Below, piece after piece: positions 15,001 to 24,000 of a DNA stretch of 64,000 nucleotides (positions are counted from its first letter, which is position 1; the number at the start of each line of letters is the position of its first letter). The position numbers are program-made. Source of the DNA: Verrucomicrobiota bacterium (GTDB lineage: Bacteria > Verrucomicrobiota > Verrucomicrobiia > Limisphaerales > AAA164-E04); NCBI GenBank assembly GCA_047947115.1, contig CP170459.1, positions 4,512,001 to 4,576,000 on the forward strand. Direction: 5' to 3'.

Positions 15001-18000
15001 GCAGGATCTTCACCGTCTTTAGGGTTACTAAAACTATAATGAGCTTGTCTAAGCTTTATAACTGGAGTTACTTCTAGCCAAGCATGACTATGAGCAAGGC
15101 GAAGGTGTGCGGTGTCCTCGATTACGTTTTCAAGAAAATCTGCAACACGCAAGTGAATGCGATTACTGGTTACCTGAGTAGGTAAGGCAAAGTAAAATCC
15201 ATGGTGGTGGCCGGCATTAATCCACTTTTGAGCAACATGAAGGGCGGCCTCGGTTTTACCGCACCCCATCGGGGCTTCAACAATGACGATGCCTGGCTTG
15301 GTGACAGCAACACATTGCTGAACCGAATTCGGCTCGAATCCGGGCGAAATCTTTGATGAAAATGCTTTATCGAATGCAGTAAGCCGCAATTTTCCTCCAG
15401 GCCAGCCTATGACTGCCAGCGCTCTCTTTGCCTGCTTTCGAGCCTGCGACAAAGACACACCACGTTCAGATGAAAAAAATTCTTCATTTGAACCAATCCA
15501 GTCAGCAACCGTAATCAATCCGGCCAACAACCAAAGATCGGAATGGTATCGACTGAATCGTTTACTAGGTGCTTCGGCTGGAAGCGGCCCGAATATCTGA
15601 ATCAATTCTGCAGCAACAGCTTGACGGTGAACCGACGCCCAATCGCCGGCAGCTTCGAATTCGAACCTGGCGTTTCGTCCCTTAGGCCGGCCATGGTGCG
15701 CTCCGACGGCAGCGGCCCAAAGATGGGCCTTGGAAGGCTTGAGCAGAGTTTGAAGAAAAACCTGGCTGACAAGCGCGTGATCCGAAACTGATGCGGTGGC
15801 CATTCTCCTGATGGACTCGTCGAGCTCGACTGGAAACCGCCACTTAGCACATTTCATTTGAAACCCAAGCGTGATTTTCCCAATGTCATGCAGTGCCGCC
15901 AAAATTGAAGCCCCCTCAGAAAATTCCCTTTTCACGTTCTCTGGTAATAAGGAAAGGAAAGCTTCCGCCACGAACCCAACATTTACGCAATGGTCAAAGA
16001 CAGACAAACCCGGTTCTCCAGAGGGAGTTGTCTTTGCCCAGAACTGATTATAATTAAGCTGGTTCATTAGCTCGAAAGGTCGTTAGATTTTCTTTTTCCA
16101 ACAAGATTTTTTTGTTAATTAATTCGGGCTAAGTTTTAAACAAACATAGAGCTCGTTTGTCGTCAACACAAACAAACAGACCGATCAGATATTCACGATC
16201 ATTTCTAGGCTTCATACAAGTCTATCTCGGAAATCGAGCTTGCACCAAAAATCTTTAAACAGATTCAAAAAAAAAATTCTTCGTCCGGTTAGCGGATCCA
16301 ACAAACCTCCCCAAATCCGCAAGGAGATCTTACCATAGACCCAGATTCCAACACCCAAAGTAACTCCTGCTCAGGAGCGCGATCGGGTATTGAGCCATAA
16401 CCATCTGTAAAATACACCAGCAAGGCATCATCATGGTCGGGATGTTCCATCTCCTTGAAAAATGGTCTGAAATCAGTTCCTCCGCCCCCTTTGGGCAGCA
16501 AGGCCTCTTGATCCTCCAGATCATACGGGCCATGCAGTTCGGTGTCAGCGTAGTAAATTAACAGGTCCAAGTGGGGGTATGAAGCAACAATGCCACGTAG
16601 TTCTGCCATGAATTTTCCCAGGTCTTGGGGGCTTATCGACCCACTGGTGTCGATGCAAACCCGGACCTTGAGGCTCTCTCCCTGCAGGTCCTCGAGGTAG
16701 AGACCGGAACCGATGAAACGACGATCGAATCCATCAAAATCGACTTGGCTACTGGCAAGAAACCGCCAGAGGAGGGTGCGCCAGTCGAGCGACGGTTCCA
16801 GAGCTTCATCCACCGCCCGAAGAAGACCTGCGGGCAGTTGTCCAAAAGCGTCTTCCCCTGTGAGCATGCGGGCCCGTGAAAAAGCCGATGCCCAGAATGT
16901 TCTTTGTTCGCGTTCTTCTGAGGCGTCATCGATTCCTGCACCGTCATGGTTTGAACGGGTCCGAACCAGGTCGTGCCATTCAGCACTGAGGGTGTAGGGC
17001 TTGCTGTATGTGCTGAGTCGATCATAGGCTTCCTCAACTTCAAGATCTTTGAGCCTGAAATCTTCTATAGGGCTGAAGGGCAACTCCAGATCCTTTATCT
17101 CACGGACCATTCCGTTGATGACAATGTCAGCGGCGATATTCCATTGTTCGGGATCCCTTTGTCCGCACCTTGAGGAGTGGCGGAGGGCAGCGTGAAGTAT
17201 CTCATGCACCATGACGCCATCGAGTTCTCGGGCATTGATGGAACAGACAAATTGAGGATTGAACCTGATCCATTTACCATTGGTGCACGCCGTGGGTATT
17301 GCCTCATCCAAATGGTGATCGATGAACAGTGCCAGAGCTCCAAAGAATGGTTGACGGGCTCGTAGTCTCACGAGAGATCCTTCCAGCCGCAGGGTTGCTT
17401 CTTCAGTGCTCATGCGGCTTGCAACAGGTGTTTGAGAAACGGTTTAAGTTTGGGTTCATTGGCCAGTATGGTGGCCAGTTCTCCAAGTTGCCCGTTGCTT
17501 TTTGCTCTCGAATAAACGACGTGGATAAAAAGTTGACACCACTCAGGTTTTGCCTGACTGACCAGCCACGAGAAAGCAAAACGGATGGCCTCTGACTCAG
17601 TCGCGCGATGCCCTAGTCCAAGAGTCAGCGCATACCGCTGTGAAGGCTCATTCGGAAAGTCGATTTTTGCGCCACAACCGTTCAGGATGTGCTCAAGATT
17701 AGGCAAGTCCTGATAGACCTTTAGAAAGGATTCAAACTCTAGAGCGGTTCCATCACCCACGGCTGCCGTTATTGGGCTGCCTATAGTGTGCAACTCTGAA
17801 GCCATTTGCCATGTGCGCGGGGACGGCCATGCGGAGTTTTTAGTATCCAACTGGTGCAGGAGTTCAGGTCGATAATTGATGAATGCAAGAACTTGTTCAT
17901 GAATGCCATTGTCAATTGCCCAATGTCTGAAACTTGTCAGATCGGGCTCCACTTCAAAGTGCAGGAATCGGTTGGCCAAAGGAGCTGGCATCTGGTGAAC

Positions 18001-21000: not shown

Positions 21001-24000
21001 GCTACTCATTGTTCGCCTCCTTCGGTTGATGATTGCATGTCTGGCCTGTCTCGACTACCCGAGGAATCCTGCGGATGGGGATCACGATGAGTTGCTCACC
21101 GTCTTTCAAGAAGGAGCTTTTGCCCTCTATGTTGATTTGATCAGGCTGACGCGATGACGCGTTACCTGTCGTTTGTTTTTTGTCTGTCATGGCTCAATGT
21201 TTTTTCTGGTTTCATTGGCCACCAGGATCTGGAAATACAAAAGACCCGCACTCCAATCAGGAACGCGGGTCTAAAATCCGGAGGAGACTTACTTTCCACT
21301 CAATTGAGTGGCTCATCCGATACTTTTCAGTATCGAAGGCACCTTGGCTCTCCCAGCCAGGTTGCCAGGTCTTGCAACTTGCAGGACCGTTCCTGATGAC
21401 GACTTCAACCTACATCATGCAGATGTGTTCGACAATACTGTTTTGTGTCATAAAACTTAGTCGGACGAGTCTGGTTCGCCAATCAAACACCAGATCCCTT
21501 CTTCCCGTATGGTTTTAAGAACTTCGTCCAGAGCCTCCTGATCGGTATCAAAGGGATCATCCCAGACGGTCGAATTATCGTATTCGTCTTCAACCTCAAG
21601 TATCCATTTGCCTTCTCCGTCTCCGTAAATTTTAACGGAAACAGAGTCGTCGCCAATGCTGATGACTTGGCACAATGGAGAATACACGAGCTCAAAATCG
21701 TCGTCGCCTCCCTCGATTTCAAAAGTTGGTCTGATCATTTTCAATGAATCTAACCAACGGGGCGTTCCAGTCAACTCCGCTCAGAGTTGATCGGATGGCT
21801 GTCGCTGGGTGTATTCCGGCGTCTACTTTTTACCTGTGCGTTTTACTGCAACTGGTTTCCTGCACTGCAGAACAGTAATAAACCTGCCAGTTACTGCAAC
21901 TGCAAACCCTAAAGGGTTTTTGCAGTATGCAGTTAACCTGGCTTTAGCTTTTTCACTGCAACGCTGCAGTAGTCCAGATACGAGTCTTAGGTTCCTTGGT
22001 CACTGAACCATCATGCTCAAGCTGCTTGAGCAAATTGTGAAAAGTACGTTCGCTCATTCCTGTCTCTTCTCTGGCAAGCTTGAGCCAGTCCTTTGTTTTG
22101 CAACCTGAAACCGGCAACAACTCAAGCAATTGCTCTGATGAATACTTCTTGCTTGCTCCTGCCTTGGTCTTCAGATCAGAAGGATCGAAGTCAACTCTTG
22201 TACAAACAGGATGACTCCAGCTTATCACGAAGCTTTCAACACTCGGATGATTACGCAGGACCAAGTCCACAGTGAAACAATCCTCTTCCTTGTGCTTGGT
22301 CATTGTCACCAGTGCATCCGGATCTCGAGCAAATACACCACTGCCTGAGAATCGATCCATTTGTTCCTTGCCGGCTTGGTTGCCCTTGGAAAAATGGTGA
22401 GCACTGATGACGGCGGCACCGGTCTGGTTGGCTATGTCATCAATTATGTTCAAAAACTCCGCTATTTCCCCGGCGGCGTTTTCATTCCTACCGGCCATGA
22501 TCTTGTAAAGCGGATCAAGGATAATGGCCCCATACTTCATCGGAGCTGCCCGGCTGCATATGGCTTCTCTGATGGTCGTAATATCGGGATTGTGACCGCG
22601 CAAGCCCCAGTAGTCGATGTTCTCCATTCCACCATCGGGATATTTTGCGACAACACCTTTGATCGATTGATCAATATTGTCCATGCGCTCCATGAAAAAC
22701 GAAGTGAGCAGTTCCATATTGACATACAAAACGCGGCACTTGTTAGTTTTAAAATCCAACCAGCTTCCGCCTGAAGCCAGTGCATGTGCAAGTTGCATCA
22801 GGATCCAAGTCTTGTTGGATTTGGATCCACCGCCAATGATCATTTTGCAACCGGCGTGTAACACCCCATCAATCAATTCCGCGGGCTTCTCGCGATCCTG
22901 CGGATTCAATTGACTGAGGGGTGTTATTTCCGGCAGATCATTGCCTTGCGCCAAGGCAAGATCCAGTGGATCCAGAATTAATTGTTCGGCATCCATCGTT
23001 CGCATAGGTCTCCATGTTGGCTCCAGTAATCATAAAGGTCGTTCACCCCTTTAAATGGCGACAATTCGTATACCTCCACTGAAGAGCACCCTGCATCAAG
23101 TAACTGTTTTTTCCAGCGGGATGCCGCTCGCCTTCCAGCTTCGTCATCATGTCCGAAGATCCTAATCACTTTGCCCTTGAAAAAAGGAAGCACGGCCTCA
23201 TGTATGAGTGAAGAGCTGCCAAGCATGCCCACGGGTGCACAATTAGGTTCTGGCTGTTCGGTCTGGATGATGTGATGTGCAATCAGGAAATCCGGAATTC
23301 CCTCAACCAAGGCTATGTTCCTGAACTTTGATGCCTCCACAATACCAACGGGCCAGCTTTTCCGACTACCGGGCTCGGCCTTGCTTTTAATTCCTGCTGG
23401 AAATGGCTTGTTGTCCAGCCGCCGTGCCTCAATGACGTTCCCTGTTTTGTCGCATACGTAGTAGCATTCGTTCTTGCACTTAAGAACGCCGCGCTCCGAA
23501 GCCCAGAGCAGTCCCTGCAGACCGTAAGGCCTCTCATGAGCCATTTGCTGCAGAATCTGCCTAGAGGGCTTCAGAAGGCCGCGACCTTGCTCGTATGCCT
23601 CTGCATCCAGAAACATTTTGGGATCCAAGTTAACCGGTTGATCCTTGGTCCTGCGCAAAGGGCGGATCCGCTTTGGTGGGGCAACCTTAGCCAGGGTTCT
23701 GTATATGTCCAACACCTTGGCAAAATCTTTGTGCCGATCGAAACCGTGAACAGTGGCAATGAATTGAAGTTCATCTCCAACAAGTCCTGTTCCGTGGTCT
23801 TTGAACAACCAATTGGTCTCAACTTGATAAATCCCAAAACTTGGATTCTTATCGTCCCTGAAGGGTGAAGAACATGATTTTTTGGCATAATCGCCGAAAT
23901 CCATTGCTTCCATCAGATCTGGGAGTGGAAGCGCTTGTTTGAGTTGTTTAATTTGACTCTGCACCTTGGCAGGAGTTTGAACTTTTAATTGTTTCATAAA

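Follow-up and report, generated by a model that had tools for sequence, protein, structure and literature searches.

The window, a 64,000-nt stretch of contig CP170459.1, carries between ~4433 and 26852 one 22.4-kb integrative element of the tRNA-Thr type, which can be delimited as a single element because the corresponding site is empty in a genome of the same genus (G033). Positions refer to the window unless they are given as genome positions, which count along the contig. The integrase-proximal attachment site (26804-26856) duplicates the 3′ portion of tRNA-Thr(tgt) over 53 nt, a similarity already recognized in the first-pass annotation, and its crossover core, CGGTTTTCAAAACCG, occupies 26838-26852. 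At its opposite end the element is bounded by the distal attachment site (4432-4456), composed of the core CGGTTTACAAAACCG and 10 nt of tRNA-like sequence.

The element core (21483-26711, minus strand) encodes an integrase (26711-25518), a 243-aa ORF, an HTH_17 protein, a replication initiator of the NGO0469 type, a primase, an AAA_25 helicase and a 79-aa ORF. A type I-E CRISPR-Cas locus (5270-16067, minus strand), comprising the array (~5270-7683) and the genes from cas2 to cas3 (7730-16067), is co-cargo of the same element. The first-pass annotation had correctly described the cas genes as co-directional with the module discussed below; to be corrected are the extent of the element, 22.4 kb, and its content, which takes in the CRISPR-Cas locus.

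A SAM-I/IV aptamer on integrative elements

The RNA at 21404-21280 (minus strand) matches the SAM-I/IV riboswitch aptamer family RF01725 over model positions 1-99 of 99 with 48.0 bits (gathering cut-off 41.1 bits) and is the sole Rfam match across the window. Twenty related leaders each score above the same cut-off. The P2 pairs of the aptamer covary over 14 leaders, and the pseudoknot between the P3 loop and the 3′ tail covaries as judged by eye (GGGAGA/UCUCC, GAAGAAU/AUUCUUU, CGGAG/CUCCG, UGAGAG/CUCUCA). By identity this RNA is a genuine SAM-I/IV aptamer, and as such it is predicted to bind SAM.

The genome contains a second full copy (copy A; genome 1687562-1687686, plus strand, 48.6 bits) and a third, truncated one (copy C; genome 3854303-3854424, 20.8 bits) that is absent from the earlier annotation. 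Copy A and the window copy (B) share two blocks, one of 3337 nt (97.1% identity) and one of 250 nt over the ORF of the 80-aa gene p80 (91.2%), in agreement with the shared blocks noted before, and this homology stops exactly at the p80 stop codon. The riboswitch follows the replication module at the same position in three element types, including the PolA-type element of locus L018 and truncated copy C. The earlier claim that these riboswitches reside on integrative elements and not ahead of methionine genes is borne out. The separate SAM-I riboswitch reported at genome position 3965544 is also present (73.9 bits) and lies upstream of a gene for a PLP enzyme. A riboswitch type that normally governs methionine metabolism would be used here in an unusual and undescribed way.

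The aptamer is followed by an intrinsic terminator (21232-21272, minus strand) with a 13-pair stem and a U run, a hairpin that is kept in all 22 of the related leaders listed. Its 5′ arm and loop hold box 1, CGUUCCUGAU, which is complementary over 10 nt to the P1 5′ strand of the aptamer, AUCAGGAACG, and is a candidate antiterminator partner. This pairing is part of the minimum-energy fold of a transcript cut ahead of the terminator 3′ arm. At -67.6 kcal/mol the antiterminator fold does not reach the stability of the terminator fold (-75.3 kcal/mol), which counts against the switching model proposed here. A second hairpin (21184-21225, minus strand; -12.6 kcal/mol, z -2.67) has a 5′ arm with CCUGGUG (box 2), resembling the P1 3′ strand, and a 3′ arm that contains the start codon of the first small gene, orf62. 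Equivalent start-codon hairpins fold in copy A and in locus L102, and the one in L053 is less clear (z -1.10). In eight of eight other lineages, a stretch of 7-9 nt on the 3′ side of the aptamer is perfectly complementary to the P1 5′ strand. By eye, each of the leaders compared has one box in the terminator 5′ arm or loop and another ahead of the start codon.

The presence of two boxes complementary to the P1 5′ strand, one in the terminator and one in the start-codon hairpin, suggests a dual OFF switch, and the predicted direction of switching is that of an OFF-type platform. Once the aptamer has bound SAM, its 5′ strand would be sequestered by the P1 helix and the pseudoknot, so that the terminator (21272-21242) could form and the second hairpin would bury the orf62 start codon. 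At low SAM this strand would be released and pair with either complementary box, that of the terminator or that of the start-codon hairpin, allowing transcription to read through and translation to begin.

Three small genes behind the switch

The first-pass annotation described an 80-aa gene behind the terminator. The gene is real, but a conserved 62-aa ORF, orf62 (21002-21190, minus strand; core S[FL]xKDGEQxIVIPxxRxPR), intervenes, and its stop codon overlaps the ATG of the 80-aa gene, p80 (20767-21009, minus strand), which has the upstream ribosome-binding site GAAGGAGG. The p80 stop codon in turn overlaps the ATG of a small acidic 55-aa ORF, orf55 (20607-20774, minus strand). The orf62 gene is found in 18 of 20 leaders, being missing from copy A and L009/L010, and in 15 leaders its stop codon overlaps the next ATG. 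Matches to orf55 occur in L007-L010 and L029 (E 1e-31 to 1e-33), and the ORF following p80 in L018 shows 31% identity to it over 36 aa. The three genes would form a translationally coupled cassette under the switch.

The basic p80 protein has 19 homologues of ~80 aa and 636 related cluster representatives at E ≤ 1e-3. No Pfam family matched p80 at its cut-off, and structural comparisons did not point specifically to the Arm/AP2 fold (DUF1488, best, Z 5.3; AP2, 3.9; lambda Int, 3.3). Matches to DUF6538 below the cut-off were found for 18 of 20 distant homologues, together with one match to Arm-DNA-bind_3, and the nearest named clusters in the ESM Atlas are all integrase Arm domains. The p80 family profile gave weak matches at the N-termini of ORFs, and all five of those tested were members of Phage_integrase; hhalign aligned p80 with integrase residues 8-54 (90%, E 1.6e-6). 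The AF2 model (pLDDT 81) consists of strands followed by a helix. By homology, p80 is a free-standing copy of the integrase Arm-type (AP2-like) domain that very probably binds nucleic acid and is predicted to bind DNA, in keeping with its earlier description as a basic, nucleic-acid-binding protein. In the reading we favour, p80 would be the trans-acting output of the switch, a regulator that binds DNA and is produced only as SAM declines.

Homology to the N-terminal arm domains of integrases could also mean that p80 controls the life cycle of the element, competing with or assisting the integrase at arm sites so that low SAM, as a sign of a failing host, triggers or blocks excision and replication. 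The only two p80 genes of this genome lie on elements A and B, and the constant place of the riboswitch after the replication module would fit such a role. However, A and B combine near-identical p80 proteins with different integrases that have unlike N-termini, no integrase is visible in the flanks of L004, L012, L013, L024, L027 and L030, and no repeated arm-type sites were found at the left end of the element. Moreover, of the best 29 p80 loci in the rest of the phylum, 28 lie among housekeeping genes. We regard this role as unlikely.

Linkage of the switch to the HEAT-MoxR-VWA genes

Behind orf55, after a gap of 52 nt, lie genes for a HEAT-repeat protein of 717 aa (18402-20555), whose family is very narrow, a 331-aa MoxR-class AAA+ ATPase (AAA_5; 17410-18405) with Walker A GPPGIGKS and Walker B ILFLDE motifs, and a 374-aa protein (16289-17413) combining a zincin-like DUF2201_N domain (HEILH) with a VWA domain (MIDAS DTSGS). 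All three are on the minus strand, co-directional with the riboswitch, cas3 and cse1, and each overlaps the next by 4 nt. Both the zincin HExxH and the MIDAS motifs are intact. The MoxR and VWA proteins are of phage types (phrog_1297 and phrog_1314), and their genes are often paired in phages (470 phage records). The HEAT protein was found in none of 550 other Verrucomicrobiota genomes, and the protein collection holds only three clusters of its family. No terminator-like site was found on the minus strand from 21242 to 16177; a weak one lies at 16177-16151, in the 220-nt gap between the VWA gene and the cas operon. RNA-library contigs, in which DNA carry-over is possible, cover the leader, p80, HEAT, MoxR and VWA, and one of them (21081-21299), subject to the same possibility, spans the terminator. 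The trio lies in the same apparent transcription unit as the small genes.

The explanation that we favour, with moderate confidence, is that a dual-level OFF switch of the SAM-I/IV type gates orf62-p80-orf55, and probably also HEAT-MoxR-VWA, on the 22.4-kb element. Read-through would probably extend over the HEAT, AAA+ ATPase and zincin/VWA genes and end at the weak site, so that an ATP-driven remodelling module would be co-induced in this lineage. The whole module is the cargo-proximal portion of a self-replicating tRNA-Thr-type element that also bears CRISPR-Cas.

It is possible, though less probable, that the switch controls the small genes only and that the trio is independent cargo in a variable slot, as CRISPR-Cas is, with its own promoter. 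Among 28 loci with at least 570 nt of sequence beyond p80, nothing HEAT-like follows p80 in 18, so that the switch and small genes are a self-sufficient unit and a separate promoter for the trio is conceivable. The riboswitch and small genes occur by themselves in copy A, L009/L010, L018/L020, L024, L027, L030 and L031; in all of these except L027 the next gene was seen to be either an IS or a host gene on the other strand. The content of the slot varies among loci (IS elements, a 208-aa ORF, HEAT fragments), the A/B homology ends at the p80 stop codon, and among the RNA contigs listed none crosses the junction between p80/orf55 and HEAT (20590-20600). Against such independence stand the short, terminator-free gap and the HEAT genes themselves, which follow p80 in 10 of the 28 loci (p80 identity 65-99%) and were found nowhere else; the earlier annotation had limited this layout to a single locus of a single-cell genome. 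In addition, L004 retains the entire string riboswitch-orf62-p80-208aa-HEAT-MoxR-VWA with no integrase or replication gene within 5 kb upstream, and a second, non-orthologous MoxR/VWA pair also stands behind a riboswitch and p80-like gene in G048 and G001.

As reported earlier, three of 150 other genomes of the same order contain RF01725 above the cut-off, and two of these have operons of the form RF01725-p80like-MoxR-VWA-MetKlike (G048, G001). The proposed phylum-spanning SAM regulon of MoxR-VWA operons is only partly supported. Within this order RF01725 is constantly accompanied by the small protein and not by MoxR-VWA: six of nine RF01725 places in the 150 genomes precede a p80-family gene, and only two of the six continue into MoxR-VWA-MetK. 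Conversely, of 26 p80 loci that could be assessed, 20 have RF01725 ahead of p80 and the other six lack any Rfam riboswitch at E ≤ 1. A riboswitch is likewise missing from 4 of 10 testable places in the same order, and 28 of the best 29 loci in the rest of the phylum are devoid of a SAM riboswitch. The first-pass observation (RF01725, terminator and conserved 80-aa gene) is confirmed as a whole, and its interpretation holds for the aptamer, its mobile location, p80 and the trio in an apparent unit, but is weakened by the loci with small genes alone and by a MoxR/VWA pair of phage type.

The MetK-like operons could point to a metabolic response to low SAM, in which MoxR/VWA would be a chaperone for the maturation of some SAM-related enzyme and the version in the window would be a reduced one, left without its client. 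MoxR/VWA pairs dedicated to specific clients, such as NorQ/NorD, are established (PMC9976466). In contrast to the G048/G001 pair (472-537 and 479-500 aa), the window pair is shorter (331 and 374 aa), of phage type and without MetK, and no MetK-like gene is present in the element; its partner is a lineage-specific HEAT protein, and the locus is mobile. This possibility appears very unlikely.

Phage T3 encodes a SAM lyase, a phage-borne means of SAM collapse. Conceivably, such a collapse could de-repress p80 and the HEAT/AAA+/zincin-VWA proteins, which would attack the invader or sacrifice the cell, making the module a SAM-depletion alarm on a defence-carrying element, a role that we consider improbable. 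PADLOC returned no model for HEAT, VWA, p80 or orf62 and matches MoxR at the P-loop level only (E 2.5e-4 and weaker), the module has no recognizable effector domain, its MoxR/VWA pair is common in phages, and p80 relatives have a housekeeping context across most of the phylum. An alarm role would nevertheless be consistent with the intact zincin and MIDAS motifs, the type I-E CRISPR-Cas on the same element and the description of vWA-MoxR sets as conflict systems (PMC7159879). It would also fit the setting of related loci: of the other riboswitch-p80 loci, L005 lies between nSTAND1-WD40 NTPases, L027 is near an Mrr-type nuclease, and the RF01725 copy in L052 heads an SNF2/SWIM helicase gene.

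The SAM-I/IV riboswitch and its expression platform

The only Rfam match in the whole window is a SAM-I/IV riboswitch (RF01725) at 21404-21280 on the minus strand, which scores 48.0 bits against a gathering score of 41.1 and covers model positions 1-99 of 99. The first-pass annotation had placed it here, together with a second full copy elsewhere, a terminator, an uncalled 80-aa ORF and HEAT, MoxR and DUF2201_N/VWA genes co-directional with the type I-E cas operon. Every element of this description is present, and the finding is real and richer than first described. The genome, one 6.08-Mb contig, has three RF01725 copies: the window riboswitch (copy B), the expected full copy (copy A, genome 1687562-1687686, plus strand, 48.6 bits) and a truncated one absent from the earlier list (copy C, genome 3854303-3854424, equal to 8304-8425 of locus L058, 20.8 bits). 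The near-identity claimed for copies A and B extends over 3337 nt at 97.1%, with another 250 nt at 91.2% over the gene for the 80-aa protein, here called p80. Copy C keeps the 5' 63 nt at 97% identity and then diverges entirely, with the break inside the aptamer; it sits where another integrative element, of the PolA type, ends, and is followed by a sulfatase gene. The genome's one SAM-I riboswitch (73.9 bits), correctly listed as separate, is located ahead of a gene for a PLP-dependent enzyme.

The textbook role of SAM riboswitches is feedback control of the metabolism of sulfur and methionine. The paper that defined the SAM-I/IV motif (Weinberg et al. 2010, PMC2864571) describes a variant of SAM-I and SAM-IV that is marine or metagenomic and occurs in several phyla, and with this class the window riboswitch shares a full-length match, the P2/P3 core, the pseudoknot and an intrinsic terminator platform. 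It differs from the class in that it would gate a putative Arm-type protein, two tiny ORFs and an AAA+/VWA module on an integrative element rather than methionine or SAM genes, and in having two anti-P1 boxes in its leader, one in the terminator and one in a start-codon hairpin. The gene-context tables of that paper may already include such neighbours. An alignment of 14 leaders from the window lineage and seven other lineages has an invariant P3 core, and at least one compensatory double change is found in 12 of the 21 predicted pairs, including P2. The pseudoknot between the P3 loop and the 3' tail also covaries in the alignment as judged by eye (GGGAGA/UCUCC, GAAGAAU/AUUCUUU, CGGAG/CUCCG and UGAGAG/CUCUCA).

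Immediately after the aptamer, a 13-pair hairpin with a U run (21272-21242) forms the terminator noted earlier, and this hairpin is kept in all 22 window-type leaders printed. The terminator upper 5' arm and loop, GUUCCUGA, is invariant across the same leaders, which seems odd for a mere terminator loop. The 5' aptamer segment AUCAGGAACG is the perfect complement of CGUUCCUGAU, the anti-P1 box of the terminator (box 1). When the transcript is cut before the terminator 3' arm, the minimum-energy fold pairs these two segments over 10 nt and encloses the aptamer (-62.9 kcal/mol), whereas in the full leader the terminator fold (-75.3 kcal/mol) beats the forced antiterminator fold (-67.6 kcal/mol). 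In 8 of 8 other lineages (L050-L056 and L102), a script found a perfect 7-9-nt complement of the P1 5' strand downstream of the aptamer, and by eye each of their terminators contains such a box. A further copy downstream in each leader (box 2; CCUGGUG in the window), also recognized by eye, forms one side of a hairpin, as its 5' arm, and the start codon of the first ORF lies in the opposite, 3' arm. The folding energy of this hairpin is -12.6 kcal/mol in the window (z -2.67), -18.3 kcal/mol in L102 (z -2.36), -13.8 kcal/mol in copy A (z -1.62) and -10.8 kcal/mol in L053 (z -1.10). The terminator, the 10-nt anti-P1 complement and the analogous boxes in all eight other lineages together identify an expression platform that competes with the aptamer. 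From sequence and folding we infer a dual OFF switch, in which SAM would lock the P1 5' strand and let the terminator and the start-codon hairpin form, while without SAM the freed strand could invade either the terminator or the start-codon hairpin.

The p80 protein and its pairing with the riboswitch

The uncalled ORF was found at 21009-20767 with the ribosome-binding site GAAGGAGG. We found 19 close homologues of its product p80, about 80 aa long, in which 34 of the first 60 positions are invariant, and a profile search (E<=1e-3) returned 636 cluster representatives, nearly all of 70-140 aa, sharing the pattern NPxHHLWNNxGTWWxHYT...RxRxSLxT...ARxRRD. p80 itself shows no significant match to Pfam, NCBIfam, PHROG or PADLOC models, and an IMG/VR scan gave no relatives. 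DUF6538 matches 18 of 20 distant homologues below its cut-off (all <27 bits, E 1.8e-5 to 0.17) and has 0 matches in the genome itself, and Arm-DNA-bind_3 matches one distant homologue (E 0.035). The AF2 model (pLDDT 81) contains three strands (residues 19-22, 25-34 and 38-45) and a helix (51-76). A structure search (VIA) with p80 gave middling matches to DUF1488 (the best, Z 5.3), AP2 (3.9), lambda integrase (3.3) and the GCC-box domain (3.0), which do not decide for or against an Arm/AP2 fold; Foldseek against the PDB returned nothing at E<=0.001 (top match RAD52, E 0.18), and a PDB sequence search with the family profile produced chance-level matches only.

In the ESM Atlas, p80 adjoins 76-aa Verrucomicrobiota clusters automatically named 'Integrase family protein', and the nearest Pfam-bearing clusters are all integrase Arm domains (Arm-DNA-bind_4, Integrase_DNA, Integrase_N_phage and Arm-DNA-bind_1). 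The weaker genome matches of the p80 profile (E 1e-8 to 1e-4) are all near the start of ORFs of 354-499 aa, with Phage_integrase in the C-terminal half of 5 of 5 such ORFs tested, and hhalign aligned the family profile with residues 8-54 of one such integrase (90% probability, E 1.6e-6). Because of these matches at integrase N-termini and the hhalign result, p80 is, as judged by sequence, related to the integrase Arm-type domain but stands alone and carries an additional invariant His-His motif, and it is predicted to bind DNA. AP2 and integrase domains are related. The predicted strands and helix of p80 may correspond to the three-stranded sheet plus helix of AP2 and the Arm domains (lambda Int, Tn916 Int; Arm-DNA-bind_1/3/4, Integrase_DNA, DUF6538), and p80 shares with the latter the pattern G-x-W/Y-W/Y ... 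R-x-R-x-SL-x-T ... A-R-x-R-D. In contrast to these domains, p80 is free-standing (about 80 aa, no catalytic domain), has the invariant NPxHH motif before the hairpin and stays below every Pfam cut-off, with weak structural matches (Z 3-4). The p80 genes of copies A and B are near-identical but their integrases are unlike, which argues against an integrase-specific role. This assignment gives a family identity to a widespread unannotated small protein, with 636 cluster representatives and occurrences in 86 of 400 other Verrucomicrobiota genomes.

Two further small genes flank p80. Copy A, in which the switch heads p80 alone, lacks a 207-nt segment that separates the terminator from p80 in the window. 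orf62 (62-71 aa) was found in 18 of the 20 leaders examined, with the core S[FL]xKDGEQxIVIPxxRxPR and unconserved tails. Its stop overlaps the p80 ATG by 1-8 nt in 15 of these 18, and an extra ORF of ~70 aa is inserted between the two genes in three (L021, L024, L025). The possibility that orf62 is spurious, raised by its absence from copy A, was rejected because the protein is conserved in 18 of 20 leaders; we therefore regard it as a real gene. Behind p80, orf55 (20774-20607) has an ATG overlapping the p80 stop and recurs in loci L007-L010 and L029 (E 1e-31 to 1e-33), and a more distant counterpart in L018 is 31% identical across 36 residues (E 2e-6, single comparison). Given these overlaps, the gated unit begins with three small translationally linked genes. 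A predicted complex of p80 with orf62 scored 0.00, which tells nothing for or against it.

The pairing of riboswitch and p80 was analyzed in 36 p80 loci from public contigs (L004-L039), including 10 with <300 nt upstream, which are not judgeable. RF01725 over the cut-off is present upstream on the same strand in 20 of the 36 loci, and there is no match at E<=1 upstream of p80 in six (L006, L033-L037). Among 150 other genomes of the same order (Limisphaerales in the first-pass annotation), RF01725 occurs at nine places in seven genomes at E<=0.01, and over the cut-off in three genomes, the number reported previously. Six of the nine places are directly before a p80-family gene and one is at a contig end, while the other two precede a SNF2/SWIM helicase and small unknown ORFs. 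p80 is encoded in 12 of these 150 genomes, with the riboswitch at 6 of 10 judgeable places. Within this order, a SAM riboswitch class almost exclusively gates a small protein that appears to derive from an integrase arm and to bind DNA. In the best 29 p80 loci of the other phylum genomes, RF01725 is present once (in G176) and no other SAM riboswitch was detected; the neighbours of the phylum loci are housekeeping genes (L28, recA, isocitrate dehydrogenase with a tRNA, LysM proteins). Based on these counts, the riboswitch-p80 pairing is real and recurrent, yet limited to some lineages of a broader family. One genus with genomes of 2-3 Mb encodes this family in 28 of 28 genomes, and a sister family does so in 21 of 35 (L067-L096). 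There the gene has no riboswitch and is surrounded by housekeeping genes, and across the phylum its product looks like a small DNA-binding protein that is conserved but unannotated.

Some individual loci have other arrangements. At L052 (G048:C137, 2083-4354), RF01725 (45.3 bits) with a two-box leader directly heads a 684-aa SNF2/SWIM helicase with no p80. In the single-cell contig L005 (SAG AG-404-B10, 2539-14497), riboswitch, orf62, p80 and HEAT remnants are framed by two very large nSTAND1 NTPases (1439 and 1693 aa), the first with WD40 repeats and the second with Laminin_G_3, F5/8-type-C and only a weak beta-propeller match. In several draft genomes of the order (G001:C102, G036:C79, G076:C27 and C34), p80-family genes are located within about 140 nt of the contig start, and one contig of G076 ends at a riboswitch. 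These leaders seem to be points where assemblies break, as would be expected of repeated or mobile sequence.

The integrative element

The cassette is carried by a tRNA-targeting integrative element of the tyrosine-recombinase type: an integrase lies at one end, the att core recurs at both ends, and a related genome has the site unoccupied. Contig C7 of G033, a genome of the same genus, has both flanks of the 22.4-kb stretch side by side (C7 6105-7259 corresponds to window 27992-26838, and C7 7241-9043 to window 4450-2648). The 15-nt att core reads CGGTTTACAAAACCG at the distal end (4432-4446) and CGGTTTTCAAAACCG at the integrase-proximal end (26838-26852), and the pieces flanking the cores toward the element jointly rebuild about 58 nt of tRNA-Thr(tgt). 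In the empty site, a similar 15-mer is found inside a CotH/LTD gene, which the insertion has split in the window into parts at 2522-4576 and 26803-28440; the insertion site is a pseudo-site within this gene. A repeat search at the left end of the element gave CRISPR repeats and weak pairs only, with no arm-type sites recognized. Copy A has a different integrase and an opposite-strand IS transposase 170 nt after p80, and no convincing att repeat was seen after p80 in copy A or L018.

From the integrase end, the element encodes the integrase, a 243-aa ORF, an HTH_17 protein, an NGO0469-type replication initiator, a primase, an AAA_25 helicase and a 79-aa ORF, followed by the riboswitch cassette, HEAT-MoxR-VWA, cas3 to cas2 with a CRISPR array, and a 147-aa HTH gene. 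The type I-E CRISPR-Cas system comprises an array at ~5270-7683 (61-nt period) and cas2 to cas3 at 7730-16067. Since the element borders enclose it, CRISPR-Cas is co-cargo and not a chromosomal neighbour. This is a complete type I-E system on a 22-kb tRNA-type integrative element with intact ends, and the mobile element with the riboswitch-p80 unit also carries an AAA+/VWA machine. With P4-like satellites and PICI-like elements, which are tRNA-targeting, self-replicating islands with accessory cargo, the element shares an integrase, an AlpA-like HTH_17 protein, a replication initiator, primase and helicase, a variable cargo slot and tRNA-derived att sites. It differs from them in a cargo slot headed by a riboswitch-gated cassette, in a complete type I-E CRISPR-Cas system as cargo and in the CotH/LTD pseudo-site.

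An HTH protein of 142-147 aa (Terminase_5/HTH_23) adjoins the distal att site in the window (4688-5131, minus strand), and in the SAG contig L004 (13016-13444, minus strand) a protein of the same type directly follows the VWA gene, which suggests that CRISPR-Cas was inserted, or lost, between the VWA and HTH genes. At a distance of 330 nt from the genuine tRNA-Thr(tgt) gene there is a second, partial copy of 45 nt (genome 3758798-3758842 and 3759130-3759182), which may be an att site or a scar left by a further element of this family.

The HEAT-MoxR-VWA module and a candidate role of the cassette

Downstream of the small genes on the minus strand are the genes for HEAT (20555-18402), MoxR (18405-17410) and DUF2201_N/VWA (17413-16289), and then cas3 and cse1. 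The 331-aa MoxR protein matches AAA_5 (31.2 bits, cut-off 22) with Walker A GPPGIGKS and Walker B ILFLDE, and the VWA protein has a DUF2201 VWA-like domain (56.5 bits) with the MIDAS motif DTSGS and HEILH in DUF2201_N; by these motifs both proteins look functional. They form a phage-type pair (phrog_1297, E 7.6e-84; phrog_1314, E 1.7e-66), and VWA relatives at about 30% identity are present in 470 phage records, which from their names we take to include N4-like phages, S-TIM5-type cyanophages and Bacillus phage G. HEAT repeats are the only domain seen in the HEAT protein, which was found neither in phage records and IMG/VR contigs nor in 400 genomes of the phylum and 150 of the order, and in the protein collection has three clusters only (96%, 58% and 45% identity). 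PADLOC has no family for HEAT, VWA, p80 or orf62, and only weak P-loop matches for MoxR.

The 52-nt gap before HEAT, the 4-nt overlaps of HEAT with MoxR and of MoxR with VWA, and the lack of terminator-like sites on the minus strand from 21242 to 16177 fit a single transcription unit. A HEAT gene or fragment follows p80 in 10 of 28 loci with at least 570 nt downstream (L004, L005, L007, L008, L013, L015, L017, L023, L025 and L029; p80 identity 65-99%). L004 has the order riboswitch, orf62, p80, a 208-aa ORF, HEAT, MoxR and VWA, with no integrase or replication gene in 5 kb upstream. In G048 and G001, two genomes of the order, the riboswitch and p80 are followed by a second, non-orthologous MoxR/VWA pair (472-537 and 479-500 aa) and a MetK-like gene. 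In view of the linkage, the spacing and this second pair, we favour a model in which the genes are co-regulated and p80 is in some way functionally tied to MoxR/VWA machines. The 18 loci without HEAT indicate that the small-gene unit works alone, and as a self-sufficient unit it leaves room for an internal promoter driving HEAT-MoxR-VWA.

Such SAM-riboswitch operons with MoxR, X, VWA and MetK genes were seen here at two loci (L050 and L053), each headed by a p80-family gene. The window module shares with them the RF01725 box design, the p80-family gene in first position and the MoxR and DUF2201_N/VWA genes next. However, its pair is of the non-orthologous phage type (MoxR of 331 aa versus 470-540), it has HEAT, orf62 and orf55 in place of a MetK paralogue, and it is on a mobile element in which no S-AdoMet_synt domain was detected; the lack of MetK and the different MoxR type argue against placing it in the MetK-type operon family. 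Compared with the vWA-MoxR ternary conflict systems (Kaur et al. 2020, PMC7159879), the module has in common a MoxR AAA+ protein, a vWA protein and a third large protein, as well as a defence-island-like, mobile context, but its third component is a plain HEAT protein with no known effector or sensor domain. A literature search, with most subscription journals outside its reach, returned no SAM riboswitch before MoxR/VWA or integrase-arm-like genes. The ternary systems are not known to be under riboswitch control. The riboswitch class is known; as far as searched, the regulon, the p80 identity, the two-box platform and the element are undescribed.

The best-supported account is a SAM-repressed cassette whose first-line product would be a DNA-binding protein, with the AAA+/zincin-VWA/HEAT module co-expressed in the window lineage and the whole unit sitting ahead of the cargo slot of integrative elements; its biological output is hypothetical. 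The only hints of a defence role come from context: CRISPR-Cas shares the element, other copies have nSTAND NTPases or an Mrr nuclease in their vicinity, and a SNF2/SWIM gene follows another RF01725. Phages can encode SAM lyases. A more far-reaching proposal, which we consider improbable, is that integrative elements carry riboswitch-p80 in front of the cargo slot as a portable 'SAM-alarm'. Its main output would be p80 as a trans-acting DNA-binding protein, and host SAM collapse through starvation or a phage SAM-degrading enzyme would switch on element-borne effectors, here the HEAT/AAA+/zincin-VWA machine. On the same proposal, the p80 family would be the missing regulator shared by the MoxR/VWA/MetK operons found in other bacteria. 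Apart from this proposal, should p80 be a transcription factor, the arrangement would be a regulatory relay from riboswitch to protein that carries a metabolite signal further in trans, and the finding yields concrete tests for the recurrent, undescribed SAM-riboswitch MoxR/VWA operons.

RNA libraries contain relatives of the locus: 21-34% of the words of the stretch occur in six estuary metatranscriptome runs. Contigs from four of these runs (90-99% likeness) cover nearly all of HEAT and, in addition, orf55/p80 (20600-20967), the leader and parts of MoxR and VWA. A single contig (21081-21299) extends from the 3' end of the aptamer across the terminator into orf62, which is compatible with read-through; DNA carry-over may also account for it, and contigs give neither levels nor ends. 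None of the listed contigs spans the orf55/HEAT gap at 20590-20600, although contigs cannot prove the absence of a transcript. An apparent joint between 20943 and 21340 has only 22 nt on one side and probably derives from relatives. The 79-aa ORF just upstream of the riboswitch (21483-21722, minus strand) has no family match and is represented in one metatranscriptome by contigs of depth 24 and 64, far above the rest of the stretch; the deepest of these comes from a relative, since it has 24 differing letters.
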